Shown one piece after another: positions 6,590 to 64,000 of a stretch of DNA of 64,000 nucleotides; within the stretch, counting starts at the first letter, position 1, and the number at the start of each line of letters is the position of its first letter. The translations under genes and the position numbers were made by a program. The notes under the pieces are model-generated. The model was given only the letters and a program-made list of their open reading frames with translations. It did not search any database and was not told where the DNA came from. This DNA comes from an uncultured bacterium (lineage in GTDB: Bacteria; DUMJ01): contig CALGNK010000002.1 in assembly GCA_937958695.1 (NCBI GenBank), forward strand, positions 585 to 64,584. The letters run 5' to 3'.

Positions 6590-7378
6590 ATGAAGATCTA
6601 CATTTCGACTGATTTAGAAGGGGTTTGCTGCGTTGTTGGCGAAGCGGGTAAGCCTCTAATGCCTGGTAGTAAACAGTATGAATTTGCCAGGAAAGAACTC
6701 ACCCAAGAGGTTAACAGTGCAATAGAGGGACTTAAAGAATGTGGAGTTGATGAGATAGTCGTTGATGATGGACATGATGGGGGAATAGAGATTCTAATCT
6801 ATGAGGAATTACTTCCAGGGGTTAAGGTATTCCTTGGGAATCCTAGACCTAGGCGTTTCCCTGCTCTTGATAGTTCTTTTGATGGGATGATTTTTATAGG
6901 ATATCACCCTATGGCTGGGGTAGAAAGCGGTATCCTATCACATAGTTATTCCTCTGTGGGAATCCAGAGAATGTGGCTCAACGGAATAGAGATAGGAGAG
7001 ATAGGGCTAGATTCTAGTTTGGCAGGAGCCCTAGGTGTACCTGTTATATTTGTCTCAAGTTGTACAAAAGGTGTAGAGGAAGCCAAAAGACTTTTAGGAG
7101 ATATAGAGACCGTTGCTGTAAAGGAAGGTTTTGGTAGAAACTGTGCACTTTCTCTACATCCAAAAGATGCTCAAAGGTTAATAAAGGAGGGGGTAAAAAG
7201 GGCAATATATCGTATAGATAAGTTTAAGCCTCTGAAAATCTCTCCTCCTTTTGAACTTAAGATTGAGTATAAACTTGAATCTCTGGCAGAAGGAGAAATT
7301 AGAAAGATAGGAGTAGAGAGAATCGACCCTAGGACTATTGTAAGGAGGTCAGATAATATATTTGATTTAATTAGTTAA
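6590..7378 (+). CDS. Peptidase M55, D-aminopeptidase DppA-like
   Basis: N-terminal MKIYISTDLEGV motif typical of the DppA family; 262 aa. Confidence 0.6.
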   Translation: MKIYISTDLEGVCCVVGEAGKPLMPGSKQYEFARKELTQEVNSAIEGLKECGVDEIVVDDGHDGGIEILIYEELLPGVKVFLGNPRPRRFPALDSSFDGMIFIGYHPMAGVESGILSHSYSSVGIQRMWLNGIEIGEIGLDSSLAGALGVPVIFVSSCTKGVEEAKRLLGDIETVAVKEGFGRNCALSLHPKDAQRLIKEGVKRAIYRIDKFKPLKISPPFELKIEYKLESLAEGEIRKIGVERIDPRTIVRRSDNIFDLIS

Positions 7379-7421
7379 ATGTGGCATAATTATTGATGTA
7401 AAAGTATTCGAGGAGGTAGGT

Positions 7422-8144
7422 ATGAAGATTGAACGTATTTTATGGTCAGTAATACTAGGTATAAGCTTGATTATTAGTGCTATTGTAGGATCTTATACTT
7501 TTTATAGGGTAAAGTCATTAGAGAATACCCTTAGTGTAACTGGCTCAGCTAGGGTAAAGGTAAAATCAGATATAGTAAAGTGGGTGGGAGAATTTAGTAG
7601 AAACATCCCAGAGGACTCTTTAAAGAAAGGTTATCAGCAGATGAATAGAGATTTAAATAAGGTCTTAGAGTTCTATAAGGAAAATGGGATTGATATTAAA
7701 GACCTAATAATATCTCCAGTATCTGTTGAGAAACCTTGGATATATAACCAGAATCTTCCAAGAGAATACATCCTAAGTCAGACTGTGGAGATTCAATCTA
7801 ATGATATTGAAAAGATAACTCATTTGGCAAAGAATTTTCAGAGACTTCTAGATGAAGGAGTGTTATTCTCTACTCAATCTCTTGAATATTATTATTCCAA
7901 ACTTCCAGAACTGAGGGTAACTTTACTTACAGAAGCTATGAGTGATGCTAGAGCTAGAGCTGAAAGGATTGCTCAAAGCACAGGGCAGAAAGTGGGGAGT
8001 TTGAAGTCTGCGAGTATGGGAGTAGTTCAGGTACTAGCACCAAATTCAACAGAAGTAAGTGATTATGGAACTTACGATACGTCTACTATCGATAAAGAAG
8101 TAATGGTGGCGGTTAGAGCAGTGTTTGTATTGGAGACGAAATAG
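7422..8144 (+). CDS. SIMPL/DUF541 (BP26/OMP28-like) secreted protein
   Basis: N-terminal TM or signal peptide, then LSVTGSARVKVKSD, typical of the SIMPL domain; 240 aa. Confidence 0.5.
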   Translation: MKIERILWSVILGISLIISAIVGSYTFYRVKSLENTLSVTGSARVKVKSDIVKWVGEFSRNIPEDSLKKGYQQMNRDLNKVLEFYKENGIDIKDLIISPVSVEKPWIYNQNLPREYILSQTVEIQSNDIEKITHLAKNFQRLLDEGVLFSTQSLEYYYSKLPELRVTLLTEAMSDARARAERIAQSTGQKVGSLKSASMGVVQVLAPNSTEVSDYGTYDTSTIDKEVMVAVRAVFVLETK

Positions 8145-9687: not shown

Positions 9688-11457
9688 CTATAAAGCTTTG
9701 AACAGTTCATTTATAGGAAATGGTATTTTGTTTTTATGTCTTAGAAGAAATTCTCTGTTGTTTATATCTCTATACTGTACTAATGCCCTCTGAAGTCTTC
9801 GCTCTTCGTAGGTCTTTGCTACATAGATCTTCTCCTTTCTTAACGTATGATATTCGGTGTAAAAGGCACAGGAAGCTGGCGTAAGCGGAAGTGGTGTATA
9901 GTCTTGTATCTGCTCTAAGTAATGTCCTAACCCTTTTACATACATAGCAAGGTCCCATGCATCCTTTAAAGTGGCTCCTGGATGAGAAGATATAAAGTAT
10001 GGAATAATATATATTTCTTTTCCTAGCTTTCTTATAACTCTTTTAAAAATAGAGGTGAATCTTTCATAGATTTCAAATCTAGGTTTTTTCATAATTTCAA
10101 GGATATGTTCTTTGATATGTTCGGGGGCAACAGATAGATGACCTCCTATATAACCCTCTCTAACTATCTCCTTTATATATTCCTCATCTTTTATTGCTAG
10201 GTCATATCTTATCCCAGAGGCGATAAATATATGTTTTACTCCAGGAATCTCTCTAATCATTTTTAGAAGTTTTAGTTGATATGAGTAGTCTATCTCCAAA
10301 TTTTCACAGATCTCAGGGAATAAACATTCTTTATCCAAGCAGGACCCAGGAACTCCATAAATCTTACATCTCAATTTATACATATTGGCAGTTGGCCCAC
10401 CTACATCACTAATAGTGCCTCTAAAGTCTTTTAGTTTGGTTATGTTATACACTTCTTTTAGTATAGATTCTTCACTCCTAGAAATTACCTGCCAACCTTG
10501 GTGAAGATTTAGAGAGCAGAATGTACAGCTACCAAAACATCCCCTATGAGAAGTGATAGAAGTCATTACCGTTTTTAATGCGGGAATCTCTTCTTTATAA
10601 AAGGGGTGTGATGCCCTTTGAAATGGCAATAAATATATAGAATCTAAGTCTTGAGAGGTATAAATAGGTGGTGGATTTTGAACTATATATCTTCTCCCAT
10701 CCCTTTGAACCAGGATTTTTCTCTTTTTTATCCCCTCTAGAAGTAACATCTGAAAATCGAAATATCTATCCTTGTCTTGGGATACCTCATCAAACGATGG
10801 GAGCATTGTATAATATTTATCTCTGAAGAGTTCATTGAATTCTTTTTCGTTTACTACATAGACGATACCTGGAATTTGATATATCTCATACCAGGGCTTT
10901 CCTAAGGCAAGCTTCTTAGCGATCTCTACTATCTGTTTCTCACCCATACCATAGACGATTATCTTTGCCCTGGAATCTAATATGATAGAGTGTCTAACCT
11001 TATCATCCCAAAAATCGTAATGAGAGAATCTTCTTAGACTTGACTCAAGCCCTCCCAGTATGATTGGAACCTCTGGATAAATTTCGTGAACAATATTGGA
11101 ATAGACTATCGTGGCTCTGTCTGGTCTTTTACCAGGTAATCCCCCCGGAGTATAGGCATCTTCTTTCCTTCTTCTCTTATTAGGAGTGTAATTTGCAACT
11201 AATGAATCGATACTTCCTGCGGTGATGCCAAAGAAGAGTCTAGGTCTTCCTAAAGCCTTAAAAGATTCTTTATCTTTCCAATTGGGCTGTGGGATAATTC
11301 CCACTCTAAATCCATAGCTTTCTAAAACCCTTCCAATTACTGCAGAGCCAAAGGACGGATGATCAACATAGGCATCACCTGTAATTATAACTATATCTAG
11401 CTCATCCCAACCCTTACTCTTAGCCTCCTCTAGAGTGATGGGTAAGAATTTAACCAT
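9688..11457 (-). CDS. ygiQ: YgiQ family radical SAM protein (UPF0313)
   Basis: The characteristic N-terminus (...WDELDIVIITGDAYVDHPSFG...), a CxxxCxxC cluster (CFGSCTFC) and 589 aa. Confidence 0.85.
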   Translation of the reverse strand: MVKFLPITLEEAKSKGWDELDIVIITGDAYVDHPSFGSAVIGRVLESYGFRVGIIPQPNWKDKESFKALGRPRLFFGITAGSIDSLVANYTPNKRRRKEDAYTPGGLPGKRPDRATIVYSNIVHEIYPEVPIILGGLESSLRRFSHYDFWDDKVRHSIILDSRAKIIVYGMGEKQIVEIAKKLALGKPWYEIYQIPGIVYVVNEKEFNELFRDKYYTMLPSFDEVSQDKDRYFDFQMLLLEGIKKRKILVQRDGRRYIVQNPPPIYTSQDLDSIYLLPFQRASHPFYKEEIPALKTVMTSITSHRGCFGSCTFCSLNLHQGWQVISRSEESILKEVYNITKLKDFRGTISDVGGPTANMYKLRCKIYGVPGSCLDKECLFPEICENLEIDYSYQLKLLKMIREIPGVKHIFIASGIRYDLAIKDEEYIKEIVREGYIGGHLSVAPEHIKEHILEIMKKPRFEIYERFTSIFKRVIRKLGKEIYIIPYFISSHPGATLKDAWDLAMYVKGLGHYLEQIQDYTPLPLTPASCAFYTEYHTLRKEKIYVAKTYEERRLQRALVQYRDINNREFLLRHKNKIPFPINELFKAL

Positions 11458-11714
11458 AGTGTCTATAGATACTCCTCTATTTAAAATTATTAACTTTCAT
11501 CTTTCCCCCTTATTTTAACACTAACGCTAGGAAACAATCTAATTTCTGGTAGATTATTTTGAGGAAGATCTGATCGATTGCAGCCTTAAGTTTTGTTTTT
11601 TGAATTATTGTGATAATATTATACTTATTAGTAGATAGGAATGCCTTTATGAACCCTCTTAAGTATAAAGAAGACTTGCATATATACAATGATATAAAAA
11701 AAGAGGTGCGCAGT

Positions 11715-12620
11715 ATGCGAATAATTACTGCGCTTTTCTTTGCAGTGCCTTATATTTTGCTAGCAAAGGATAATAGATATTTCTATTTAACCCTTCTTTT
11801 TGGATTTATCTTTTTATTGGTTCAGGTATTAAAGGTTAAATCTCCGTGGATACCAGTAGTATTAACCTTATTGCTTAATGTTTCTATAGTAGCTACTACA
11901 GGTATTCAGAGAAGCCCATTTATGTTTTTATTTCTTCTTCCTGTTATAACCCATGGAATAGAAAGAGAGCTTAATTGGGCTTTAAGAGTAGCTTTTATAA
12001 ATGTGGTATTTCTGGTTATCTTTGAGATATACTCTGCTATTACTGGAGATTTCTTTGGTGTAGGATACATAAGTAGTGTCATAGTTCTTATGTATTATTT
12101 ATCAAAAATTATAGTGGAGGCTCAAGGATCTATACTTTCCTACGCTACAGATATGAAAGAGAAAGCTTATCTAGATCCTCTTACAGGTCTTTATAATAGG
12201 AGAGCTCTTGAGGAATATATCAATAGTATGATTCTTAATAAAGTTCCTTTTACTTTAGTAATGTGTGATCTGGATGAATTTAAAAGATATAACGATACCT
12301 ATGGACATCAAGCAGGAGATATGATGCTTAAGAAGTTCGCAGATATTTTGAAGACTTCTATTAGGTCTTCAGATTTAAGTTTTAGATACGGAGGAGATGA
12401 ATTTGTTATACTTCTACTAGGAGAACTGGAGAATTTAACTCCTTTATATGACAGGATAAAGAATAAACTAAAGGAACAGTCAAACGATATAGGCGTATCT
12501 TTTGGGGTAGCTATCTTTCCAAAAGATGGAAAATCTCTAGATAGAATAATTTCTATTGCTGATAACTCTTTGTATGAAAAGAAGAAGAGTTTGAACAATA
12601 GAAACATCAGTTCCTTTTAA
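11715..12620 (+). CDS. Membrane-anchored diguanylate cyclase (multi-TM N-domain + GGDEF with intact RxxD I-site)
   Basis: RSSDLSFRYGGDEF read directly. The AAGAGGTG RBS favours the ATG at 11715 over the track start at 11610. Confidence 0.75.
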   Translation: MRIITALFFAVPYILLAKDNRYFYLTLLFGFIFLLVQVLKVKSPWIPVVLTLLLNVSIVATTGIQRSPFMFLFLLPVITHGIERELNWALRVAFINVVFLVIFEIYSAITGDFFGVGYISSVIVLMYYLSKIIVEAQGSILSYATDMKEKAYLDPLTGLYNRRALEEYINSMILNKVPFTLVMCDLDEFKRYNDTYGHQAGDMMLKKFADILKTSIRSSDLSFRYGGDEFVILLLGELENLTPLYDRIKNKLKEQSNDIGVSFGVAIFPKDGKSLDRIISIADNSLYEKKKSLNNRNISSF

Positions 12621-12629
12621 AGAAAACTA

Positions 12630-12658
12630 TTGCATCTCTTGACCTTACCTTGTATAAT
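12630..12658 (+). promoter_or_regulatory. Sigma-70-like promoter of the arg array: TTGCAT (12630-12635), 17-nt spacer, TATAAT (12653-12658)
   Basis: Read directly, 30 nt upstream of the argG RBS. Confidence 0.45.
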
Positions 12659-12687
12659 TAATCAGAATATAAACTTGGAGGGAAAAG

Positions 12688-51808: not shown

Positions 51809-52746
51809 TGGTAGCAGAGAATCTTAGAGAAGCATATGGAAAAACATTAGTAGAATTAGGAGCTATATATAAGGATATAGTAGTATTGGATGCAGACCTT
51901 AGTAAATCTACAAGAACTGTACTATTTCAAGAGGCCTACCCTGAAAGATTCTTTGAAATGAGTATTGCCGAACAGAACATGGTAAGTGTAGCAGCGGGGC
52001 TGGCTCTAGTTGGTAAAATTCCCTTTGTCCATTCATTTGCGGTATTTGCAACAGGTAGAACTTATGACCAAATAAGACAGTCTGTATGTATAGCAGGACT
52101 CAATGTCAAGATATGCGGATCAAGCTGTGGTTTATCCGACTTTGGTGATGGTGCAACTCATCAGTCGATAGAAGATGTTGCATTAATGAGGGTTCTTCCT
52201 AATATGGTGGTGTTGGTACCTGCTGATGCTAATGAAACAAAAAAGATGGTAAGGGCCATGGTAAAACACTATGGACCGATGTATATAAGGATAAATAGAA
52301 ATGATCTACCTGTATATACAAGCGAAGATGGCGAATATGAAATAGGTAAGCTTTATCAGCTGAAAGATGGAGAAGATATTACCATATTTGCAAACGGAGT
52401 AATGGTCTCTAAAGCTATGAATGCGAGCGAAGTTTTAGAAAGAAAGGGTATATATACAAGAGTGGTAAATGTAAGTACAGTTAAGCCCTTGGAAAAGGAA
52501 GAGTTACTAAAGTATATAAAGGGAGTAAAAGGGATAATAGTAGCAGAAGAGCATAGTATTATAGGAGGACTTGGAAGTACTATAGTAGAACAACTTAGTG
52601 ATGTAAAACATCCTCCAGTTAAGTTTATAGGGATAAGAGATAAATTTGGTACCTCTGCTAGCAACTATGAAGAATTATTGGCGCATTATGGGTTGACCTC
52701 TGAGAGTATAGTAGATACTGCTATTAATCTATTAGATGGAGGATGA
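51799..52746 (+). CDS. Transketolase, C-terminal (pyrimidine-binding) subunit
   Basis: 10-nt overlap with the N-subunit; 315 aa. Confidence 0.88.
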   Translation: MELMVAENLREAYGKTLVELGAIYKDIVVLDADLSKSTRTVLFQEAYPERFFEMSIAEQNMVSVAAGLALVGKIPFVHSFAVFATGRTYDQIRQSVCIAGLNVKICGSSCGLSDFGDGATHQSIEDVALMRVLPNMVVLVPADANETKKMVRAMVKHYGPMYIRINRNDLPVYTSEDGEYEIGKLYQLKDGEDITIFANGVMVSKAMNASEVLERKGIYTRVVNVSTVKPLEKEELLKYIKGVKGIIVAEEHSIIGGLGSTIVEQLSDVKHPPVKFIGIRDKFGTSASNYEELLAHYGLTSESIVDTAINLLDGG

Positions 52747-52849
52747 TATGCGATTTGGCTGTTGCGGGAATATGGTTGCAGTAGAGCCAGATAAGACATA
52801 TCATATTCTAGTGACTTTTATAATGATGCATATAAGTCATTAAAACTTC

Positions 52850-53959
52850 TTAAAAAATACTTTGGCTAATAGATTTTATAAACTCTTCTGCTTGATAGCC
52901 AAAGTTATCTTCTTTACTACAGTTATACTTACTTTCTAACACTTCCCCTATTCTATGGCATTCCTCTTTAGCTAGAGATGTGTTTAATTTTCTAGGCTTC
53001 TCTCCTACTATCCTTAAGAAGTTTAACCTGTATATTTTCTCTAATACAGTTTCTGGTAACTTAATGCCCTTTACAATATCTGGCCTTGCTAAGAAATTTT
53101 TATCTGTACGCCCAACAGAAAATTCTTTATCTGTTTCTAAAAAGTCCTTCATAAACTTTATCCTGTTAGTTATAAGTTCTTTTGCTATACCATTTTTCGT
53201 TACAGCAGTATCATCGCCAAATACTATCCTATCCTGATACTTTATAAAAAATTCTCTAGTCTTTTCAGGATATGCAGAAAAGTTGTAATACATCTCAGAA
53301 CCTGGAGTAATATCTAAGTTAACATTAGGGAAATTCTGGAGCAAATTTTCAGCTCTTTCTAAGTTGGCTGATAGAAAGTAAAAATGAGCAAACACAATCT
53401 TTAACTTAGGAAATCTTTCTAATATGTTTTCTACCCTCCTATAAAGCTCTTCTTTTGTTGGGTATGATCCATCTGTATAATCCCATCCTCTTTCTTTAGC
53501 TACAGATGGAATCCTATCCTCATCCCAAAACTCCTCTGGATCTGCTACATGCCAGAAAATAGGCATCTGTAATGATTCTATGTTGGCAAAGAAGGAATTA
53601 TAAACAGGACTGTCTATAGGGAATGGCATTCTTTTAGCATAATTTGGCTTTGTTTCTAAGATTTTAATTCCATCAAACCCTATCTCTTTCAGCTTGATAA
53701 CCTGTTCTCCAAGGATCTTTCCTATGTCTTTATCTGTTTTTCCTTCTATAACTGAATAGTCAAGTCCTCCAGAGATATAAACTTCGTTAGGATACATAGC
53801 TTTGAAGCATATAGCTTGGGGATTACTATTTACCCTATCTAATCTTGCTGGACTAACTATATTTAATCTTGTAATTTCAAGCCCTTCGAAAAACCTTTTG
53901 GTCTCATCTATAAGAGGTATATATTCGAAATGAACGTGGGCATTGATAATCTTATTCAT
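52850..53959 (-). CDS. Amidohydrolase-2 family TIM-barrel metal-dependent hydrolase
   Basis: N-terminal INAHVHF metal-binding His motif; 369 aa. Confidence 0.6.
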   Translation of the reverse strand: MNKIINAHVHFEYIPLIDETKRFFEGLEITRLNIVSPARLDRVNSNPQAICFKAMYPNEVYISGGLDYSVIEGKTDKDIGKILGEQVIKLKEIGFDGIKILETKPNYAKRMPFPIDSPVYNSFFANIESLQMPIFWHVADPEEFWDEDRIPSVAKERGWDYTDGSYPTKEELYRRVENILERFPKLKIVFAHFYFLSANLERAENLLQNFPNVNLDITPGSEMYYNFSAYPEKTREFFIKYQDRIVFGDDTAVTKNGIAKELITNRIKFMKDFLETDKEFSVGRTDKNFLARPDIVKGIKLPETVLEKIYRLNFLRIVGEKPRKLNTSLAKEECHRIGEVLESKYNCSKEDNFGYQAEEFIKSISQSIF

Positions 53960-53974
53960 TGTAATTAACCCTCC

Positions 53975-54979
53975 TCATAATCGTTTCTTCTTTAGTGCAT
54001 CTTCTAATGCCATAATGGCATACTCAGTTGCTTTTATTCCATCTTCTCCACTTGCAAGTTCATCTACCAACTTTCCCTCTTTTATGCTCCTAATAATATC
54101 GTTATACATAGTAATAAATGGTTTTTCCTCTTCCTCTGACTTTTCTACTATTGTCTCGTTTGGCCCATAATACTTAAATTCTACCTCTCTAGGAGCTGGG
54201 CCCATCTGATAACTTATTATTCCTTTTTCACATTCTATATCTATCCTTAAAAGATATGTTCCATCTTTACTGTTGTGAGTATAAACCCAGCTTGCATCTA
54301 TAACAACAAGTGTTCCTGATTTTAATCTGCATAGTGCTACTGCATGGTCTGGGTTTTCATATCCTTCCATAAAGATGCCATCTGCGGTAATGGTATCAAA
54401 TTCGTCTTCAGAAAGCCATCTGACTAAATCGAAATAGTGAACACCACAGTCTACAATTGGTCCCATACCTTCTTTCATTAGTCTTTCATATCTATCTTTA
54501 CCTGCCCATCTCCCTCCAGCCCAGTTATATATAAATCTCATCATCATAGGACGCCCCAACTCTTGTGATCTTATTATATTCTTTATCCTTCTCATATAGG
54601 GCTTCGCCCTATTCTCGAAATTGACAGCAAAAATCTTTCCAGCAGATTTCATAGCATTTACCATCTGCCAGCCCTTTTCTGCATTCTCTGCTAATGGCTT
54701 TTCACAGAAAACATTAATACCTTTTTTAGCGCATTCCATAACCACTTCATAGTGTGCATTTAAAGATGTAGAGACAGTAACTAAGTCTAACTCTACAGAG
54801 TCCAGCATATCTCTGTAATCTGTGAATAGCCCTTTTACCCCAAATCTTTCTCCGTATTCTTTTAACCTCATCTCATTAATATCGGAAAGGGCTATAAGCT
54901 CTAGCTCTTTAATACTTTTTATTGCTGGAAGATGCCCATATCCGGCTACAGTACCACAACCAACAAGCCCTACTTTCAA
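53975..54979 (-). CDS. Gfo/Idh/MocA-family NAD(P)-dependent oxidoreductase
   Basis: N-terminal KVGLVGCGTVA Rossmann and the EKPLA motif. Confidence 0.85.
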   Translation of the reverse strand: MKVGLVGCGTVAGYGHLPAIKSIKELELIALSDINEMRLKEYGERFGVKGLFTDYRDMLDSVELDLVTVSTSLNAHYEVVMECAKKGINVFCEKPLAENAEKGWQMVNAMKSAGKIFAVNFENRAKPYMRRIKNIIRSQELGRPMMMRFIYNWAGGRWAGKDRYERLMKEGMGPIVDCGVHYFDLVRWLSEDEFDTITADGIFMEGYENPDHAVALCRLKSGTLVVIDASWVYTHNSKDGTYLLRIDIECEKGIISYQMGPAPREVEFKYYGPNETIVEKSEEEEKPFITMYNDIIRSIKEGKLVDELASGEDGIKATEYAIMALEDALKKKRL

Positions 54980-55111
54980 GATTCTCTCTCCTTTCTAATA
55001 AAGTTTGTACCTGGAAGAGATTCTATAACAATATTGAGGATATTGTCAATTTATATAGTGTTAAGAAGATTTTAGTGATATAATATTCACAAAAATTATG
55101 GAGGTGGAATT

Positions 55112-55564
55112 ATGTCATACCCCTATAAGATCTTTATTTTAGTTGCCTTAGTAGTATTTCTAATCCCTGCTTCGGCCTTAGCCAGAGAAAGGTTTAGAGT
55201 AAATGTTAGGGCAGACTTAGAAGATGAGAATGTAGGAGCAGAGTTTGAGTATAATCTTAGTTACAGACTTTGTGTTTATGGAGGAATTACTCTTAGTATA
55301 GGAACTATTGATAGGGGAAGGATATCAGCTGGTTTTAAGTATTATCTTTGGGAACCGGATGAGAAACTGTACTTTAAGATACGTGGTATAACCAATTTTG
55401 AAGACTCAACTATTACAAGGTTTAAAGTAGATATAGGTATAGGTTATACTACATATCTTAATCATACAAGAAGTTCTATAGAATTGGGAGTTTTAATAGG
55501 TACTTATAACAATGCACTAAATATTGAGCCATCGTTTGGGGTATTGGTATCAGTAAGTAGATAA
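55112..55564 (+). CDS. Small secreted beta-rich protein (possible small outer-membrane beta-barrel), hypothetical
   Basis: Signal peptide ending ASALA; alternating hydrophobic pattern; 150 aa. Confidence 0.5.
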   Translation: MSYPYKIFILVALVVFLIPASALARERFRVNVRADLEDENVGAEFEYNLSYRLCVYGGITLSIGTIDRGRISAGFKYYLWEPDEKLYFKIRGITNFEDSTITRFKVDIGIGYTTYLNHTRSSIELGVLIGTYNNALNIEPSFGVLVSVSR

Positions 55565-55566
55565 GG

Positions 55567-56643
55567 CTAACCAGAGCGATTTAATAGGTTTTGATAGACC
55601 TCTTTAGTTTTTATAATCATACCTTCTAAGGTGAATCTTTCTCTATATCTTCTATATCCTTCTTCTTTTAAGTATTCTATTAACTTCTTATCACTTAATA
55701 GTTTCTCTATAGCCTGAGCAAGCGCTAAGGAATCTTGAGGAGGTACTAGAAGTCCGGCTTTACCATTTTCTATAATTTCTGGAATGCCTCCTACATTTGT
55801 AGCTATAACCGGAACTTTCTGAGATATCGCCTCTAAAATTGATATTGGTAATGCTTCAATAAGCGAAGGTAAAACAAATATATGAAAGTTACTAAAATAG
55901 AGTTTTGCATTAGGAAGAGCTCCTAAGAAAAAGACTCTATCCTCTATATTTAGTCTCTTAGTTAATTCTTCTAAAATATTTCTCTCTTCACCATCTCCTA
56001 TTATTACAAGATTTACTTCCCTATGTTTATTATACAAATAGCTGAAAGCTTCTATAAGATATCTGACCCCCTTAGATTTAGTAAGTCTTACTGCTGTTCC
56101 TATAATAACTCCTTCTATATTTATTGGAAGTTCTCTTCTCTCTTTACTCTCAGATACCCCATTGTAGATAAGTGTGATCTTATCTACAGGTAATCCAGCT
56201 TTGATAAGCTTTTCTCTATCATAGTTTGAGACTGCTATAACACTATCTCCCCATTTCCTATTTATAAGAGTAGCTATCTTATAGTCGATGAATGGAAGAA
56301 AAGTGTTATATCCATGACAGGTAAATATTACTGGTATACTAGAAGCTACGCTTTTAGATATATAGACTAGTTCATGCGCTCCATGAACATGGATTATACT
56401 AGGACTGAATTCTTCTATTATGTATTTCAATTCCCTTTTGTAATTTTTAGTATTTGTGAATGTAAGCGGTATAATTTCTCTATATGTAATATTACCTTCT
56501 TTTAGAAGGGTAATGCCTTTCCCGTACGGTGCAACAACCAATATTTTATACTCATCCTTAAAAGATTTGACTAGTTCTATCACATGGACTTCTGTCCCTG
56601 CAATCTCAAAGTAAGGCAAAAGATATAAAATCTTATGTTTCAT
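55567..56643 (-). CDS. Glycosyltransferase family 4, last gene of the EPS operon
   Basis: Its N-terminus is very similar to the 33743..34807 GT4 (KILYxLP...GTEVHxxELxK). It starts 8 nt downstream of the BcsB-like stop. Confidence 0.75.
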   Translation of the reverse strand: MKHKILYLLPYFEIAGTEVHVIELVKSFKDEYKILVVAPYGKGITLLKEGNITYREIIPLTFTNTKNYKRELKYIIEEFSPSIIHVHGAHELVYISKSVASSIPVIFTCHGYNTFLPFIDYKIATLINRKWGDSVIAVSNYDREKLIKAGLPVDKITLIYNGVSESKERRELPINIEGVIIGTAVRLTKSKGVRYLIEAFSYLYNKHREVNLVIIGDGEERNILEELTKRLNIEDRVFFLGALPNAKLYFSNFHIFVLPSLIEALPISILEAISQKVPVIATNVGGIPEIIENGKAGLLVPPQDSLALAQAIEKLLSDKKLIEYLKEEGYRRYRERFTLEGMIIKTKEVYQNLLNRSG

Positions 56644-56651
56644 AGATTAAT

Positions 56652-58670
56652 TTAAGAGCCTCTCTGTCTCTTCCTAATAAATATAATAGTAACAAGGGTA
56701 ATTAAGACCGCTATCAATAACACTATGAGATAACTTAATAGTGGTTGCCTAGCAAATATGGTGAATAATGCCCTCTTTTCTCTTATAAGGATACTTGAGA
56801 CAATCTCTCCTAAGCCAGTTATAACACTGACTTGTCCATAGATTTTATTTCGGGTATCCGAATTCCCTACAATTCTCTTTAATCTAGATAATGTATCTTG
56901 GTCTTTATAGATGACTGAATACATAGCCTTGTCTTTATTCCAAGGAGAAGAATTTGCTTGTAAGAGTGCCTTAATGATAAATCCATCGAGAGAAAATCCT
57001 AAGTCTTTTTTTATAGAGAATCCAATCTCTTGGGGGACTACCCATAGTATATCAGAGATTCTCTTTAGCCTTTTGTCCTCCATATCTCCTATAAATATCA
57101 CATTCTTATCTTTTAGATAATCTTCATCTATCTTTTCCCCTAAGAATGTCTTCCATCTAAATATCTTTCCCAGCGTCTGTCCTAAGGTGGCAGATAAGGT
57201 AACAGACAGTGAAAGCTCTTCTTCAGATGGGCTTTCGGGGAGCCATAGAACGATCTCTCTATCAGTCTTGAAACTCCAGATGTCTCTAAGGTCGGGATAA
57301 AATCCTCGCCATTCTTTTACTAGATATATGAAAGAATCTCCTTCAATCTTAGTCCAAGCTATTTCATCATACCTCTTATTACAGTCCACCTCTATCAGAT
57401 TATGATATGTTTTTATCTCTACAAACCATTCTCTCTTATCAAGCTCTTCTTTTGGAAATGGAATTCTTAAAACTCCTCTTTCAGCATTCCCTGCATCCAA
57501 TCTTTCACTCTTTACCGGAATCCCATTTATGTAAACAGTTATCGAAGATTTTTTGGTTTCTAAAACCTTGGAGTGGCTAAATTGAAGCTCTATAAATGAA
57601 CCGTTTCCTATCCCTTCAAAACCTGCCGGTAACCTTAGGAGAAAAGACGCGTTCTGATGAAATACACCTGAAAGAACTATATTTTTGTAGCCAAGGTCTT
57701 TTAGCCTTATCAAGCCTTCTTTTCCTATCTCTTCTCCCTCTTTAGCTGGGATTGAAGTTACAATTATTGGATTCTTCTCCGTAATAGATGTCTGCAATGG
57801 ATCATTAATATAAGAAACAGCCTTTGATAAACCTTCTCTTTTGCCTGATATATATAATTGTACTCTATCTTTTGAGGAAAGAAGATATATTAGTCCATCA
57901 CTTTCTTTTAGATTTTTAAATGCACTGTCTGAAGATAGTACATTCCATCTTGATAACTCTCCTACAAGAATCTGTGACTCTTTACTATATCTATAGGGAT
58001 CTTCTGTAGAAACCTTTAGATAGAGATTCTTGTATCTTTCTCTAATACCTAAACCATTTGCTACCTCTAACATAGCTTCTAACTCTTCTGGGGAAAAGTT
58101 TTTAGGGAGATAAAATGTAAAATTGATCGGCTCTTTATCAAGATAATCCAAAAATGGATAGGGATAATCAGAAATTTTATAAATTTTATTTTCTAGAATC
58201 TCTAGGTGTAGAAACGAATCTTTATGTATTAGCACCCAGTTGGCATCGTTATCTATATCCTTACATAGACCTTCTACACTCCTATGTCTAGTAATTATAG
58301 AGATCTCATTGAACCCTTTCTTAATTAATCCTTTAGGGATACTTATTCTCCAGTATACAGGTCTCTTTTCTTTCTGACTTATGCTTTTACTGCTTAAAGG
58401 CCTCCCATTGATTGATGCAGTTATAAAAGATTCTCTATCTATAATGGTGGGAGAAAACGAGTATCTGATTTCTAAGAAATTATTATCCCCAGGTTGAATT
58501 CCCGACTTTATCTCAAACCAAAAGACCGCTTTGCCAATGGGTAGATTTAAAAGCCTATCGTCTTTAAATAACTGTATATTGTAACCTCTAGTTTCTAAAG
58601 AACAGTAAGAAACATTGGGAATTAGGTGAAATATAAAGATAAACATTAACAAAAGAATTCTTCTTTTCAT
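56652..58670 (-). CDS. BcsB-like (YdaN-like) exopolysaccharide synthase periplasmic subunit
   Basis: 672 aa with a signal peptide, a large extracytoplasmic domain and a single C-terminal TM anchor. 1-nt overlap with the GT2. The assignment is by architecture and synteny. Confidence 0.55.
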   Translation of the reverse strand: MKRRILLLMFIFIFHLIPNVSYCSLETRGYNIQLFKDDRLLNLPIGKAVFWFEIKSGIQPGDNNFLEIRYSFSPTIIDRESFITASINGRPLSSKSISQKEKRPVYWRISIPKGLIKKGFNEISIITRHRSVEGLCKDIDNDANWVLIHKDSFLHLEILENKIYKISDYPYPFLDYLDKEPINFTFYLPKNFSPEELEAMLEVANGLGIRERYKNLYLKVSTEDPYRYSKESQILVGELSRWNVLSSDSAFKNLKESDGLIYLLSSKDRVQLYISGKREGLSKAVSYINDPLQTSITEKNPIIVTSIPAKEGEEIGKEGLIRLKDLGYKNIVLSGVFHQNASFLLRLPAGFEGIGNGSFIELQFSHSKVLETKKSSITVYINGIPVKSERLDAGNAERGVLRIPFPKEELDKREWFVEIKTYHNLIEVDCNKRYDEIAWTKIEGDSFIYLVKEWRGFYPDLRDIWSFKTDREIVLWLPESPSEEELSLSVTLSATLGQTLGKIFRWKTFLGEKIDEDYLKDKNVIFIGDMEDKRLKRISDILWVVPQEIGFSIKKDLGFSLDGFIIKALLQANSSPWNKDKAMYSVIYKDQDTLSRLKRIVGNSDTRNKIYGQVSVITGLGEIVSSILIREKRALFTIFARQPLLSYLIVLLIAVLITLVTIIFIRKRQRGS

Positions 58671-59932
58671 TACGAAACACTCCTTTCCGTTTTATACCAT
58701 CTTAATGCTTTACCTGTAATCTTTTCTCTAATAGAGAAATATATCGCTCTTATAACAACTATAAGCCAAAGCTGGCAGTATGTAAAATACATTAAACATA
58801 TCAATAAAAGGTTTTCTAAATTACCTTCGCCTCTTTCAAAACTTAGAGATATAAATGTCTCTGTGATATAAAGGGCATAAGCTAAGAACCATATGAGAAA
58901 TAGTGGGCCTCCAATGTTTAGTTTTATTATGCGTAGTAAGCCCAGAATAAATATTACATCTGACACAACTATACCAGAAAAAGCCAGTAGATATATATAG
59001 GCGAAATAGAGTATATCAAACATAATCTTTTTATCTCTTAACGAGAAGAAATTTTTAAGATATGTAAATATTACTGCAAGATTCCCCCTTGCCCATCTTG
59101 TCCTTTGCTTGAACCAAACCTTAAGTTTTTCTGGTTCTTGTTCCCATGTTACTGCGTATGGTATCCAGAGTATCCTATAGCCAGATTGGTATATCCTTAT
59201 TGTAAGTTCTGTATCCTCTGTAAGGCTCTTAGTTTTCCAGCCGCCAATCTTGTTCAGAAGCTCCTTTCTTATGATAAAATTAGTACCTGGTATTGTAGCA
59301 AGACCCCACAAGTAATTTCTAGCTGCCTGGACAAGCCACTGAAAACTCAGGGTCTCTATATTTATAAAACGAGTAAGTATACTTCTATCCCTATTCCTAG
59401 TCCTAAACTTTCCTACTACTGCCCCAAGGTTGGGATTATTGATTATAAATCTTACAAGATTTAATATTGCTCTCCTTTCAGGGGTATTATCAGCATCATA
59501 GACTACTATGTAATCCCCACTAGCTAACTTTAATCCCTGATTCAGTGCGTTAGCCTTGCCTTTAGCACCTAAGGGTGGTTGTATCTCTAATATCATAAGG
59601 TTTTTGTACTTTTTAGCCCTCTCTCTTAAAATTTCTCCTGTTCTATCTGTAGAACTATCATTGATAACGATGACCTCTAATTTATCTTTAGGGTAAATAG
59701 ATCTCATTATTGCATCTACAGTATTACCAATCACCTTTTCCTCATTGTGAGCTGGGATTAATACTGTTATCTTTGGATATTCTGAGAGTTCCTCTGAGGT
59801 TATCTCAAATTTTTGTGTCTCTAAAAAGTATCTATACCCAAAGAACGTTAAAAAGATATGATACAGTAGAATAAACCAGACGATTGCCATAGATATAACA
59901 AAGGCATAGTCCCAGAATGTTAATATATTCAT
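58670..59932 (-). CDS. Processive family-2 glycosyltransferase (YdaM/PgaC/BcsA-catalytic-core-like) with no PilZ domain
   Basis: QRTRW (QxxRW) at nt 59093-59107, DAD and DSSTD motifs, 2 N-terminal and about 3 C-terminal TM; 420 aa. Confidence 0.8.
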   Translation of the reverse strand: MNILTFWDYAFVISMAIVWFILLYHIFLTFFGYRYFLETQKFEITSEELSEYPKITVLIPAHNEEKVIGNTVDAIMRSIYPKDKLEVIVINDSSTDRTGEILRERAKKYKNLMILEIQPPLGAKGKANALNQGLKLASGDYIVVYDADNTPERRAILNLVRFIINNPNLGAVVGKFRTRNRDRSILTRFINIETLSFQWLVQAARNYLWGLATIPGTNFIIRKELLNKIGGWKTKSLTEDTELTIRIYQSGYRILWIPYAVTWEQEPEKLKVWFKQRTRWARGNLAVIFTYLKNFFSLRDKKIMFDILYFAYIYLLAFSGIVVSDVIFILGLLRIIKLNIGGPLFLIWFLAYALYITETFISLSFERGEGNLENLLLICLMYFTYCQLWLIVVIRAIYFSIREKITGKALRWYKTERSVS

Positions 59933-61407
59933 ACTTTATCACCCATCTCGTATAGTTTTCTCTTATTTCTTATCAGATAGAAAATAATTATGGCAAAGAT
60001 ACTGATTGTAATTATTAATATGGTTCTCAGATAATTAATGAACGTCTTAAAGACTTTTTGCAAAAATGTCTCCTCCAGAGGAGGAATACTACTATTGATT
60101 ACCTTTTCCCCATCGATATTTACAATTTTCATATATTTGCTTTCTACTTTGAAAGGTTCTTTTCTTAGTTCTAAGAAGTTGTACCCTAACGCACGCATCT
60201 CACCTATCAATTCTCTTAGTTTATCTGTTGTAGCGTAAGATGGAACCGTAATACCTATAATAGCATCTCTTAAAATTCTAAATTCCCTTGCCCTTTTCAA
60301 TAGATAGTTATATTGTGTAGGATCATTAGGATTATATCCATTCATATTTATCGGATATGCTATAGCTTTTGGGGAGCTGATGCTTAAAAGCCCCTCGTAT
60401 AGGAGAAGATTGAAAATTTTACTTGCCTTTTCGTAAGTTTCAAGTGAAGTATCGGGCAACTTAAACGCTATGGGAAATATCTCTAATCTCCCTAATATTA
60501 GTAAGTCCTCTTCTATTATACTATTAATGTCTCTCTTATTAGGATAATTCCCCAATATAATAGCTCCGTTATGTTCTTCTACAAGTTTTAATACCTCTAT
60601 AAGGTCCATATTTTCTCCCAAGTAGTAAGTATTCCCAGAATGATTTACTTTAGGGTATATTATAAGATTAATAGAGACATCTTCACAGCAGTAAGATATT
60701 AATAATTCTCTAAGTTTTTCAGCAGAGGTTAAAGGGGTTACCTCATCTAGCAAGAGTAAAATTTTTCTATCATTTTTGTGATTCTCATTAAGTATATCAT
60801 GGAGAAGATCGAAGAATACCAAAAATGAGTTATCCCTAAAGTCTAATCTTCCAAAATACCAAAGATTCTCCTTTTCCCAGACAAAGGGGGTCTTTTCAGT
60901 ATAATTATCTAAAAGGGCAAGATCTTTCCTATCTCTAGGATAGGCAATATAGACTGGAGATTCTAGTTCAAAGCTTATCGATTCTCCTTTATAGAAGATA
61001 GACATATATCCAGTTTTATAACCATAATATTCAAGATCTTTCCAGTTAGCATAGTAAGCATACTGTTCTATATTTCCTTCTATCCATATAAGCCTTTTAG
61101 CTTTAGAGATATTTCTTAACAAATCTACAGTAAATCTTCTATCTTGTAGCCCAAGATAGAAGACATAGTCGTAAGAAGAAACATTACTAGGGAGATCTTC
61201 TATATAGCTACTATCTATAGATACATTAAAGTGTCTTAGGTACCTTTTTAGCAATTCTAACATAGGATAATTTTCACCTAATCTTGTCTTACCCTCATAC
61301 AATATAAGAATACGTTTACTTTCTTTAGAGTAAAGGATTTTGGGAAATATAAAGTTTAATAAAGTTAAGATAATAAGACTTATTAGTAAGATCTTACCCA
61401 ACATCAT
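59929..61407 (-). CDS. YdaL-like bitopic protein of unknown function (possibly a DUF2334 deacetylase-like fold)
   Basis: N-terminal and C-terminal TM helices with a 430-aa extracytoplasmic domain; 492 aa. The position matches ydaL. Confidence 0.5.
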   Translation of the reverse strand: MMLGKILLISLIILTLLNFIFPKILYSKESKRILILYEGKTRLGENYPMLELLKRYLRHFNVSIDSSYIEDLPSNVSSYDYVFYLGLQDRRFTVDLLRNISKAKRLIWIEGNIEQYAYYANWKDLEYYGYKTGYMSIFYKGESISFELESPVYIAYPRDRKDLALLDNYTEKTPFVWEKENLWYFGRLDFRDNSFLVFFDLLHDILNENHKNDRKILLLLDEVTPLTSAEKLRELLISYCCEDVSINLIIYPKVNHSGNTYYLGENMDLIEVLKLVEEHNGAIILGNYPNKRDINSIIEEDLLILGRLEIFPIAFKLPDTSLETYEKASKIFNLLLYEGLLSISSPKAIAYPINMNGYNPNDPTQYNYLLKRAREFRILRDAIIGITVPSYATTDKLRELIGEMRALGYNFLELRKEPFKVESKYMKIVNIDGEKVINSSIPPLEETFLQKVFKTFINYLRTILIITISIFAIIIFYLIRNKRKLYEMGDKV

Positions 61408-62248
61408 ATCTACTAGTATCTTTTGCCCTCTCCCAAAGGACTAATGCATCTTCTCCCTGTTGATATTCTGCCTCTCCTACTTTTAGTCTTATAGAGATCG
61501 ACCTCTTACGACCCTTAACCTCTACAACAATTCTATCTAAGAGATTATGGAGTTTTTCTTTTACGATCTTAGCTGAATCTAGATTTATACCAGGTAATAT
61601 TATGCCTATAGTTGCCTCATCTATTAGCCCCTTTATATCAACGACCCTTGTATTAGTCATTATCGTTTGTGCTATGGTTTTTACTATCTCTCTATAGCCA
61701 TCCTCTCCATAGACACCCCTTAACTCACTTGCGTCAGAAACATTTACATATAGAACAGATAATTTCTCTTTAAACCTGTTAGCCCTACCTACTTCTTCTT
61801 CCAATCTCTGAAAAAAGCCCTGAGTATTTAAGAAACCTGTCAACTCGTCTAGAAGTATTAATCTTTCCGCTATTCTATACTTTTCTATGTTACTTAGGAG
61901 ATTACTTACCTCTCTTTCTAATCTTCCAGAAAGATAAGCTCCAAAGGGCATAGCAAAAAGCCAAAGTACATATTCAATTCTAAATTCTGTTATAGTACCC
62001 AATACTAAGACAGAGTATAGTAGATAGGATCCATATACAAATATAATGATAAGAGAAGTAATTAAGCCGGGGATTAGACCTAAGTTATAACCTATTACCA
62101 TATTTATTACTAATGCCCCAGCTAGTATGTAGTTTATGAAGTTTACATTTTGACTTGTACCAAAGACTAGAATAAATATACAGAGCCAGAAAATCATTAA
62201 TAGATCAAAGATCACAACATCTAGTCTTAGATTTATACTTGTCTTCAT
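61394..62248 (-). CDS. YdaK-like membrane protein with a degenerate GGDEF domain retaining an RxxD I-site (putative c-di-GMP receptor)
   Basis: 4 TM, then DELTGFLN, the start of a GGDEF domain. The GG(D/E)EF position reads LIDEAT, while RVVD is preserved five residues upstream. Confidence 0.65.
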   Translation of the reverse strand: MKTSINLRLDVVIFDLLMIFWLCIFILVFGTSQNVNFINYILAGALVINMVIGYNLGLIPGLITSLIIIFVYGSYLLYSVLVLGTITEFRIEYVLWLFAMPFGAYLSGRLEREVSNLLSNIEKYRIAERLILLDELTGFLNTQGFFQRLEEEVGRANRFKEKLSVLYVNVSDASELRGVYGEDGYREIVKTIAQTIMTNTRVVDIKGLIDEATIGIILPGINLDSAKIVKEKLHNLLDRIVVEVKGRKRSISIRLKVGEAEYQQGEDALVLWERAKDTSRYDVG

Positions 62249-62282
62249 ACATATCCTCCCTCGAATAACGATTATTTTTTAA

Positions 62283-63380
62283 TTATATACCATAATTTCC
62301 CATTTTAGCTAGTAGTATTAAGGTCTCAAATTGGTCAAATACATAGAGGTCTTTAGATTTGTAGTCTCCAAGCTTAGTAATATTTATTTTACTCAGAAAG
62401 ATATCTGATTCTCCTCTTTTATTCAAATTTAAAAGGAGTAGTGATAGAGTTGCATATACTCCATAAGACTCATCTGTTGTAGCAGATTTGCCATTCCAGT
62501 AATAAGAAGTATAGATTTTACCATCTTCTCTCATCTTTGTATTTATAAAGTTAATAAACCGCTTGATAAGATTATAATCGCCGATATTTATGCCTATATA
62601 AGCCTGCTCAATCATATTTACCTTTGAAGGTGTATGATATGTGGATGATGGAATATCATAGTAATCTGGGAAGAAGATCTCGGAAAATTTTAGAGATTCT
62701 TCTAAGATCTTCTTGGAACTCTCATAGAAAACTTTGAATTTAGGTATATACTGAGATAATTTTGAAATCATCTCCAGATTTAGATAGAACAGTGGAACTC
62801 TCTTATTAGCCTTTTCTGTCCTCCCATCAAAGTAGTCAATAAGATATTTGTCATAGCTATTGAATTTTATTATATTTTCCCCGATATAGATCCCATCTCT
62901 TAAAAATCTTTCCTCTTTAAAAGTCTCATAGGCTTTTATCAAGGAGTATGAGATCCTTAAAGAGTCTAATAATGATGTAGCATCGTCTGGCAAGAGTGTC
63001 CTTCTATTTATCCTCCAGAATAAATAACCCCTAGGGGATAGAAAGTATCTCTTTGTTACCTTCCAAGTAGTATCGAAAAGAATAAGGTTATTGGTATTTA
63101 CTGCATATTCCATCAATTGTCCCATAGATTCTAGGAGAGAATACTCTATAGGCATATCATTTTGAATTTTAGAAGCGATTAATCCTCTTCTATCCATAAA
63201 TCTTTCTTTGATATGATTTAATATACCTCTTTCTAAATCTCTAGAGTTGGATATAGTCTCTTCTATAGCCTTTTGTATCCTGTAACCTAAAAGATAATCT
63301 CTAACAAGAGAGAAAGAAAAAATAGATGCCAATATTAACAATATCGTAATAATCGTGTAACTCAACTTCTTAATAGTCAC
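62283..63380 (-). CDS. YdaJ-like secreted or anchored glycoside hydrolase (GH8-like by synteny and size)
   Basis: 365 aa with an N-terminal signal anchor. LLESMGQ loosely resembles the GH8 catalytic Glu region. The assignment is weak without an HMM. Confidence 0.4.
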   Translation of the reverse strand: MTIKKLSYTIITILLILASIFSFSLVRDYLLGYRIQKAIEETISNSRDLERGILNHIKERFMDRRGLIASKIQNDMPIEYSLLESMGQLMEYAVNTNNLILFDTTWKVTKRYFLSPRGYLFWRINRRTLLPDDATSLLDSLRISYSLIKAYETFKEERFLRDGIYIGENIIKFNSYDKYLIDYFDGRTEKANKRVPLFYLNLEMISKLSQYIPKFKVFYESSKKILEESLKFSEIFFPDYYDIPSSTYHTPSKVNMIEQAYIGINIGDYNLIKRFINFINTKMREDGKIYTSYYWNGKSATTDESYGVYATLSLLLLNLNKRGESDIFLSKINITKLGDYKSKDLYVFDQFETLILLAKMGNYGI

Positions 63381-63385
63381 TTATA

Positions 63386-64000
63386 CTATTTATTGCCAGG
63401 TTCAGCTAACCTACCCATAAAAAGTATACTTCCAGAACGATTATCCCTTATAAAAAAGATAAATGGTCTATCAGCGAGAAATACAATAGGCATAACAGCC
63501 ATCTTAGTTCCCATTATGACCGCAGTAGCAGCTGCTGCCTCTGTTCCTTCCTCGTTTACTTCAACAAAAGATTGATGGATAACGCTATTTATATATAGAT
63601 CTGGTTTTGGTGTCATTCCGGAGAAATCAGCCTTTATCATATCGAACGCATCAACCATACCTAGTCTTTTTAGGATATCATTAAGGATGTACCTTTTTTC
63701 TATCTTGAATCTTGGGATATAGACTTCAACCTCTCTTTCTGATAGTGATGATAACCAAGTCTTTAGTTTTTTCGTTGAGAGAATCTTTTCTATCTTAGAG
63801 AGCATAATATTAATTTTAGGTAGAACAATAATCATAGATAAATCCTTTCCAGCATATAGTATCTCTAAGACTTGAACCTCATTGTCCTCTCCATAGTTAA
63901 ATCTTCCTTTTTGATACATCATTGGCATATCCAATTTGACATTCTCAGATACATAGAAAGGCATATTTTTAGTATTTTTAGGATCAAACTGTAATTCCCA
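63386..64000 (-). CDS. Serpin (serine protease inhibitor), C-terminal ~200 aa; the 5' end lies beyond the window
   Basis: Hinge and reactive-centre loop EEGTEAAAATAV (nt about 63521-63553) and C-terminal signature FLADRPFIFFIRD. The frame stays open to nt 64000 (…WELQFDPKNTKNMPFY…). Confidence 0.85.
   Translation of the reverse strand, partial: WELQFDPKNTKNMPFYVSENVKLDMPMMYQKGRFNYGEDNEVQVLEILYAGKDLSMIIVLPKINIMLSKIEKILSTKKLKTWLSSLSEREVEVYIPRFKIEKRYILNDILKRLGMVDAFDMIKADFSGMTPKPDLYINSVIHQSFVEVNEEGTEAAAATAVIMGTKMAVMPIVFLADRPFIFFIRDNRSGSILFMGRLAEPGNK

Follow-up and report, generated by a model that had tools for sequence, protein, structure and literature searches.

Does the gene at positions 61394 to 62248 encode an enzyme that makes cyclic di-GMP (c-di-GMP), or a protein that responds to it and controls exopolysaccharide (EPS) synthesis by the products of its neighbours? 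The gene lies on the minus strand of a 64,000-nucleotide stretch of DNA from an uncultured bacterium (GTDB lineage Bacteria; DUMJ01; NCBI GenBank assembly GCA_937958695.1, contig CALGNK010000002.1, positions 585 to 64,584 of the forward strand), hereafter called the window. Its product is a small inner-membrane protein with a dead GGDEF domain in which the allosteric inhibitory site (I-site), R201xxD204 plus R155xxR158, is retained. We consider it likely that the gene encodes a c-di-GMP receptor of the YdaK/PssE type, acting through the I-site and licensing in trans a synthase made of a GT2 glycosyltransferase and a BcsB-like protein. The gene and the parts of its product on which this reading depends are as follows.

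61394..62248, minus strand: YdaK-like receptor gene, 284 residues, with four transmembrane helices, a stalk helix and a degenerate GGDEF domain
61934..62233, minus strand: N-terminal membrane module of the receptor, residues ~6-105, four helices (AlphaFold2 secondary structure and hydropathy)
61775..61786, minus strand: R155-A-N-R158, RxxR and candidate secondary I-site, aligning with the last Arg of WspR 'RRSLR'
61637..61648, minus strand: R201-V-V-D204, primary I-site RxxD, aligned to the RxxD of 3ign, WspR, TM1788 and SiaD
61607..61621, minus strand: D210-E-A-T-I214, degenerate GG(D/E)EF position (HMMER and MAFFT alignments)

A Shine-Dalgarno sequence (GGAGG) was present ~6 nt 5' of the ATG, and the Pfam GGDEF family spanned residues 133-276 of the product (E 9.7e-15). 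Named cyclases in NCBIfam also matched, all of them below threshold. The AlphaFold2 (AF2) model, for which 16 homologues served as input, had a mean predicted local distance difference test score (pLDDT) of 74.5, with values of 80-88 in the GGDEF part. Helices were placed at residues 6-31, 37-55, 62-83 and 91-137, followed by the alpha/beta GGDEF fold; the fourth helix extended as a long cytoplasmic stalk into the GGDEF domain. In Foldseek this domain resembled those of PleD, WspR, TM1788, 3ign and DosC, with root-mean-square deviations of 1.5-2 A over ~147 residues. The 284-residue protein was therefore found to hold a multi-pass N-terminal module and then a single GGDEF domain (YdaK-type proteins have ~283 residues). 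No Pfam family matched the membrane module, and Y72, G73, W96, P101 and G108 in this region were conserved among the receptor homologues.

The register of the active site (A-site) was set by HMMER alignments to the solved cyclases 3ign, WspR (3i5c), TM1788 (4urs) and SiaD (7e6g), and by a MAFFT alignment (A5) of the receptor with these four proteins and one further GGDEF protein encoded in the window. Both methods gave the same motif register in the receptor. The preliminary description of this DNA, made from the letters and open reading frames, had read LIDEAT at the GG(D/E)EF position and had concluded that catalysis was most unlikely. LIDEAT (residues 208-213) is the correct site read two residues too early; the true motif is DEATI at 210-214. 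The loss of the A-site itself was borne out, since the alignment to solved cyclases including WspR put DEATI on GG(D/E)EF and the other catalytic positions were replaced as well. In A5, the receptor had N169 for the metal-binding Asp (the first Asp of DxD), S174 for the Lys of FK, R177 for the base-binding Asn, R186 for the base-binding Asp and L208 for the Arg before GG. All of these positions were retained in the four solved cyclases and in the window's own GGDEF protein (11610-12620). The catalytic roles of the substituted columns are those that we take to hold in PleD and WspR.

Because the signature reads DEATI and the metal-binding, base-binding, Lys and Arg positions are all replaced, catalysis by the receptor can, as judged from these alignments, be ruled out with high confidence. 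If the receptor were a diguanylate cyclase working through an unconventional active site, it would keep the GGDEF fold, which is present, and it does retain D134-x-LTG-x-N141 at the start of the domain (A5). However, DEATI stands in place of GGEEF, with N169, R177, R186 and L208 at catalytic positions, and GG[DE]EF was found in 0 of 107 family representatives. In addition, YdaK makes no c-di-GMP, according to a passage of PMC5422440 that cites Gao et al. 2013. We regard an active cyclase as exceedingly improbable and rejected this reading on the catalytic positions lost in A5.

The I-site presented the opposite picture. R201-D204 fell on the RxxD of the solved cyclases, and the spacer between RVVD and DEATI was IKGLI, the canonical five residues, in agreement with the earlier claim that an RVVD motif was intact at the canonical distance. 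The last Arg of WspR 'RRSLR', with which R158 aligns, is R198 by count on the alignment, and we take it to be the secondary I-site arginine. R158 was invariant in the family alignments A1-A4. Conservation was then read across the family from an exhaustive search of the family profile against 1.84 billion representative proteins, in which 169 clusters matched at E <= 1e-30, mostly ~280-residue proteins matching end to end. Counts were made on the 107 full-length, single-domain representatives of ~280 residues, one per 50%-identity cluster, aligned to the profile. R158 was kept in 105/107 (98%), R201 in 104/107 (97%) and D204 in 103/107 (96%), and these were the three best-conserved residues of the whole protein. 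The R..D pair was retained in 103 of the 107, and the signature position was variable across the family. Since R158, R201 and D204 top the conservation and the GG[DE]EF position varies, selection in this family is strongest on the residues that contact c-di-GMP, and the former active site is free to drift.

Many longer matches of the same search (430-1270 residues; P0089, P0148, P0162, P0180-P0183 and others) carried tandem GGDEF domains, one copy intact (GGEEF) and the other degenerate yet with RxxD; P0089 had about six GGDEF-like repeats. These tandem proteins are unconnected with the receptor operon.

A dead GGDEF domain could also serve as a protein-protein interaction module, and the protein would then be a c-di-GMP-independent scaffold, as reported for GdpS of Staphylococcus aureus, whose GGDEF domain recruits DgkB. 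The A-site is dead in keeping with this, and the conserved residues of the membrane module would fit complex formation. Degenerate GGDEF proteins that act without c-di-GMP are known (PMC11962490; Holland et al. 2008 as listed in PMC4125290). However, the three most conserved residues of the family are those of the I-site that contact c-di-GMP, and one would hardly expect a pure scaffold to keep them. Point mutation of the I-site in YdaK also abolishes function: the soluble domain of YdaK binds c-di-GMP in vitro, and either R202A or D205A abolishes EPS production (PMC5422440). A GdpS-type scaffold is unlikely because the I-site is conserved.

If the conserved Arg/Asp site bound another nucleotide, such as a different cyclic dinucleotide or (p)ppGpp, or if GTP occupied what is left of the A-site, c-di-GMP would not be the signal to which the operon responds. 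PDB entries of PleD complexed with c-di-GMP and ppGpp or pppGpp (9g85, 9g86) show that GGDEF domains can accommodate other guanine nucleotides. However, RxxD together with the additional Arg is the canonical constellation of a c-di-GMP I-site, c-di-GMP is the ligand of both characterised relatives (PMC5422440, PMC4125290), none of the GTP-binding residues of the A-site is left, and the window also encodes a cyclase candidate with an intact GGDEF motif. We therefore consider another ligand quite unlikely and retain the I-site receptor of c-di-GMP as the preferred reading.

That cyclase candidate is the GGDEF protein used in A5.

11610-12620, plus strand: intact GGDEF protein, 336 residues; Pfam GGDEF E 3.1e-39, RSSD-x5-GGDEF, all catalytic positions present

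No Pfam family matched the ~185 N-terminal residues of this product. From its sequence this protein may be an active diguanylate cyclase and could supply the receptor with c-di-GMP, and c-di-GMP is plausibly made in the organism because the window encodes this intact RSSD-x5-GGDEF protein.

The receptor gene was the second in a tightly packed minus-strand cluster, whose other members were the following.

62283..63380, minus strand: GH8-like (glycoside hydrolase family 8) protein at the YdaJ position, 365 residues; Pfam Glyco_hydro_8 E 9e-5, below the curated cut-off
59929..61407, minus strand: 492-residue membrane-anchored protein at the YdaL position, a distant DUF2334 relative by homology to DUF2334 proteins
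58670..59932, minus strand: GT2 glycosyltransferase of the processive type at the YdaM position, 420 residues; Pfam GT2 families
56652..58670, minus strand: BcsB-like protein at the YdaN position, 672 residues; Pfam BcsB E 1.4e-35
55567..56643, minus strand: GT4 glycosyltransferase, last in the cluster; Pfam Glycos_transf_1 and Glyco_transf_4

The GH8-like gene was separated from the receptor gene by 34 bp, the receptor gene overlapped the 492-residue protein's gene by 14 bp, that gene overlapped the GT2 gene by 4 bp, the GT2 gene overlapped the BcsB-like gene by 1 bp, and an 8-bp gap followed before the GT4 gene. The 492-residue protein had no Pfam match of its own; it shared 23% identity (E 1e-19) with the DUF2334 protein of the Paraliobacillus locus (L017) and was homologous to a protein of the Gordoniibacillus locus (L011) that itself matched DUF2334 at E 7e-57. 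The best NCBIfam match of the GT2 was PgaC_IcaA (192 bits, below its cut-off), and its identity was 50% to the Paraliobacillus GT2 and 60-76% to the GT2s of Clostridia and Dictyoglomota. Pfam showed no PilZ domain in the GT2 (GT2-family matches alone at E <= 0.01), the BcsB-like protein or the 492-residue protein. It had been claimed earlier that the adjacent GT2 has no PilZ domain; the lack of PilZ stood, but the GT2 gene is not adjacent to the receptor gene and lies two genes away, with the gene of the 492-residue protein intervening. The receptor is accordingly encoded together with a GH8-type protein (sub-threshold, E 9e-5), a DUF2334-related protein, a PilZ-less GT2 and a BcsB-like protein.

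This arrangement is that of the ydaJKLMN genes of Bacillus subtilis, which code in order for a glycosyl hydrolase, the c-di-GMP receptor, YdaL, and YdaM plus YdaN as a putative EPS synthase (PMC13274460, PMC7064775). In both operons the receptor gene is second in an order of GH8, degenerate GGDEF, YdaL-type, GT2 (without PilZ) and BcsB-like genes. The Paraliobacillus locus showed GT2 and BcsB domains at the YdaM and YdaN positions, and YdaM is a GT2 and YdaN a BcsB-like protein. The receptors are alike as well. YdaK has four transmembrane helices and a degenerate GGDEF domain in ~283 residues, with an RxxD five residues before its dead motif (PMC5422440); the same architecture was found here in 284 residues, with R201-D204 corresponding to R202-D205. 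About 45 residues upstream, YdaK has an RxxR at 157-160, described by Bedrunka and Graumann as a putative secondary I-site (PMC5422440), and R155-R158 of the receptor corresponds to it. The systems differ in the dead motif (SDERI in YdaK, DEATI here), in the host (Bacillota for YdaK, here a metagenome-assembled genome (MAG) of Dictyoglomota), and in the gene content, the window operon having an additional GT4 gene at its 3' end and a serpin gene 5 bp upstream. The Bacillus operon is controlled by SigB.

Word-indexed protein searches from the receptor returned the Dictyoglomota/Clostridia clade, a few Bacilli and generic cyclases, and neither B. subtilis YdaK nor Listeria PssE was among the matches. 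The SDERI and DKDDA strings, the dead motifs of YdaK and PssE, occurred in none of the representatives of the exhaustive search. The link to YdaK was made through family cluster P0191, which includes the Aeribacillus (Bacillus) kexueae protein WP_243388493.1; the YdaK of A. kexueae is tabulated at 34.98% identity to B. subtilis YdaK (PMC13274460). BLASTP aligned the receptor with the A. kexueae protein at 24% identity (E 2e-19) over 265 residues, the membrane part included. When the Dictyoglomota/Clostridia profile was compared with the Bacillaceae profile in hhalign, the probability was 100% (E 1.3e-43) over 246 columns that included transmembrane helices 2-4. In the Bacillaceae alignment R157, R160, R203 and D206 (A. 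kexueae numbering) were invariant and lay within one residue of the published YdaK numbers. On these comparisons we regard the receptor as a member of the same family as the A. kexueae protein, and hence probably of the YdaK family.

The gene order recurred in other genomes. A genome scan found full-length relatives of the receptor in 10 loci, from five Dictyoglomota or unclassified MAGs, a Bacillota MAG, two Desulfosporosinus, a Clostridia MAG and Gordoniibacillus. The degenerate GGDEF, YdaL-like, GT2 and BcsB-like genes were collinear in all ten, and a GH8-like gene was found in eight, being missed in L004 and L006. In Paraliobacillus (Bacillaceae) the order was GH8 (faint), GGDEF, DUF2334, GT2 and BcsB; counting this locus, the module recurs in 11 loci across Dictyoglomota, Clostridia and Bacilli. 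The scan, which extended to Gordoniibacillus, returned no Bacillus or Listeria locus.

The Gordoniibacillus kamchatkensis locus (L011) had two features of its own. Directly upstream of the yda-type cluster, at 7110-7763 on the plus strand, was a gene for a YcgR-like PilZ protein (PilZ E 1.8e-16, plus PilZNR), so that this locus carries two kinds of c-di-GMP receptor side by side. Its GT2 was split into 159 and 236 residues, encoded at 11434-11913 and 11976-12686 on the plus strand, which may reflect a frameshift, a pseudogene or an assembly error.

The YdaK paradigm, to which the preliminary description had assigned the protein, was upheld, on broader grounds than that description had given, by the same architecture, operon position and five-gene order and by full-length homology to the Bacillaceae clade; its c-di-GMP-binding part stays a prediction. 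Several points weigh against the receptor model. The identity of the receptor to the Bacillaceae clade is, in sequence alignments, 20-27%. The connection to YdaK passes through the A. kexueae protein, taken here as the tabulated orthologue, and PMC13274460 gives the species and the percentage without an accession. That the receptor binds c-di-GMP is predicted from the conservation of its I-site and from its relatives. Finally, no phosphodiesterase was identified in the window, where a simple EAL/HD-GYP motif scan gave uninformative short-motif matches alone.

Three other known systems follow a related logic. The first is the pssA-E system of Listeria monocytogenes, in which the GGDEF domain of PssE binds c-di-GMP with a Kd of 0.79 uM, at 2 per protein, and is essential for Listeria EPS (PMC4125290). 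PssE also has a degenerate GGDEF motif (DKDDA) with an RxxD five residues upstream, and is the I-site receptor of a system in which a GT2 (PssC) and a BcsB-like protein (PssD) make the EPS, with a GH8-type glycosidase associated. However, pssE is the last gene in its operon and the Listeria glycosidase is encoded elsewhere (lmo1913); the likeness to PssE is one of shared architecture and not of sequence alignment. The second is a system of Pseudomonas aeruginosa. Its inner-membrane protein PelD, without which the Pel exopolysaccharide is not produced, likewise carries a degenerate GGDEF domain and binds c-di-GMP at an RxxD I-site. The logic of a trans-acting I-site receptor is the same, but in PelD a GAF domain separates the membrane part from the GGDEF domain, and the partners of PelD are a GT4 (PelF) and a different export machinery. 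Beyond the GGDEF fold, the receptor showed no sequence relationship to PelD. PelD is cited as a precedent in PMC4125290. The third is the BcsA-PilZ cellulose synthase, which likewise has a GT2 polymerase with a BcsB partner under post-translational gating by c-di-GMP. BcsA, however, carries a C-terminal PilZ domain in cis, whereas here a 420-residue GT2 without PilZ is accompanied by a separate protein with a degenerate GGDEF domain.

In the mechanism that we propose, c-di-GMP, probably as an intercalated dimer, would bind R201/D204 and R158, as judged by analogy with the characterised relatives. The stalk helix and the module of four membrane helices would relay the binding signal, which would activate polymerisation and export by the GT2/BcsB-like synthase. 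This synthase would consist of the PilZ-less GT2 polymerase, its BcsB-like partner and the DUF2334-type protein. The GH8-like, DUF2334-type and GT4 proteins may process or decorate the exopolysaccharide. In B. subtilis, YdaK forms joint clusters with YdaM and YdaN, and the cyclase DgcK is one of its interaction partners (PMC5422440, PMC7064775).

The ends of the cluster differed from those of most compared loci. A GT4 gene 3' of the BcsB-like gene was found only in the close relative L002 among the compared loci and is lineage-specific; its product may add a side-chain sugar. At the other end, a serpin gene (63386-64000, minus strand, cut by the window end; Pfam E 1.7e-64; 406 residues in L001) stops 5 bp short of the GH8-like gene, which has the same orientation. 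The serpin was found upstream of the cluster in L001 and L002 and was not detected in the other compared loci. It is probably co-transcribed with the EPS operon, which is unusual for a bacterial serpin.

Rfam gave no match to a riboswitch or other RNA element at gathering thresholds in the whole window, and promoter and terminator scans of 54900-64000 performed no better than on shuffled sequence. A 150-residue open reading frame at 55112-55564 on the plus strand runs towards the end of the operon; its product would have a hydrophobic, signal-like stretch at the N-terminus and matched no Pfam family. GC and AT skew flipped sign at ~52-54 kb, where the genes switch from mostly plus to minus strand (window ~52000-64000). 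Because it coincides with this switch, the flip is probably an effect of gene orientation rather than a replication landmark.

The lineage of the host was read from several features. The argininosuccinate synthase encoded in the window shares a 90%-identity cluster with proteins of Dictyoglomota MAGs, the named proteins most similar to the receptor belong to Dictyoglomus and Dictyoglomaceae, and the G+C content of the window is 32-39%. A literature search on c-di-GMP in Dictyoglomus found nothing relevant, and one for recent structural work on Pss returned unrelated rhizobial Pss papers alone. A proposal on which we are evenly divided is that no YdaK-type, I-site-gated, synthase-dependent exopolysaccharide system had been recognised outside Bacillota before this one, which would belong to the presumably thermophilic Dictyoglomota and be accompanied by a lineage-specific GT4 and a serpin that is probably co-transcribed.

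In its biology the system is a further, unremarkable case of a known switch, which leaves current understanding unchanged and will not surprise specialists. It would extend the YdaK/PssE mode of control, in which a dead cyclase acts as a trans receptor for a PilZ-less GT2/BcsB-like synthase, to a deep-branching uncultured lineage. The conservation of the I-site over more than 100 sequence clusters adds comparative support to a receptor model that has hitherto been based on two Firmicute examples. Some of the homologues are automatically annotated as 'diguanylate cyclase', a label that should be corrected. If the receptor model is true, the complete, compact and presumably thermostable set of receptor, DUF2334-type protein, GT2 and BcsB-like protein could make the trans-switching of a GT2/BcsB-type synthase structurally tractable, and the operon is a reasonable candidate for structural work from a thermophile lineage.

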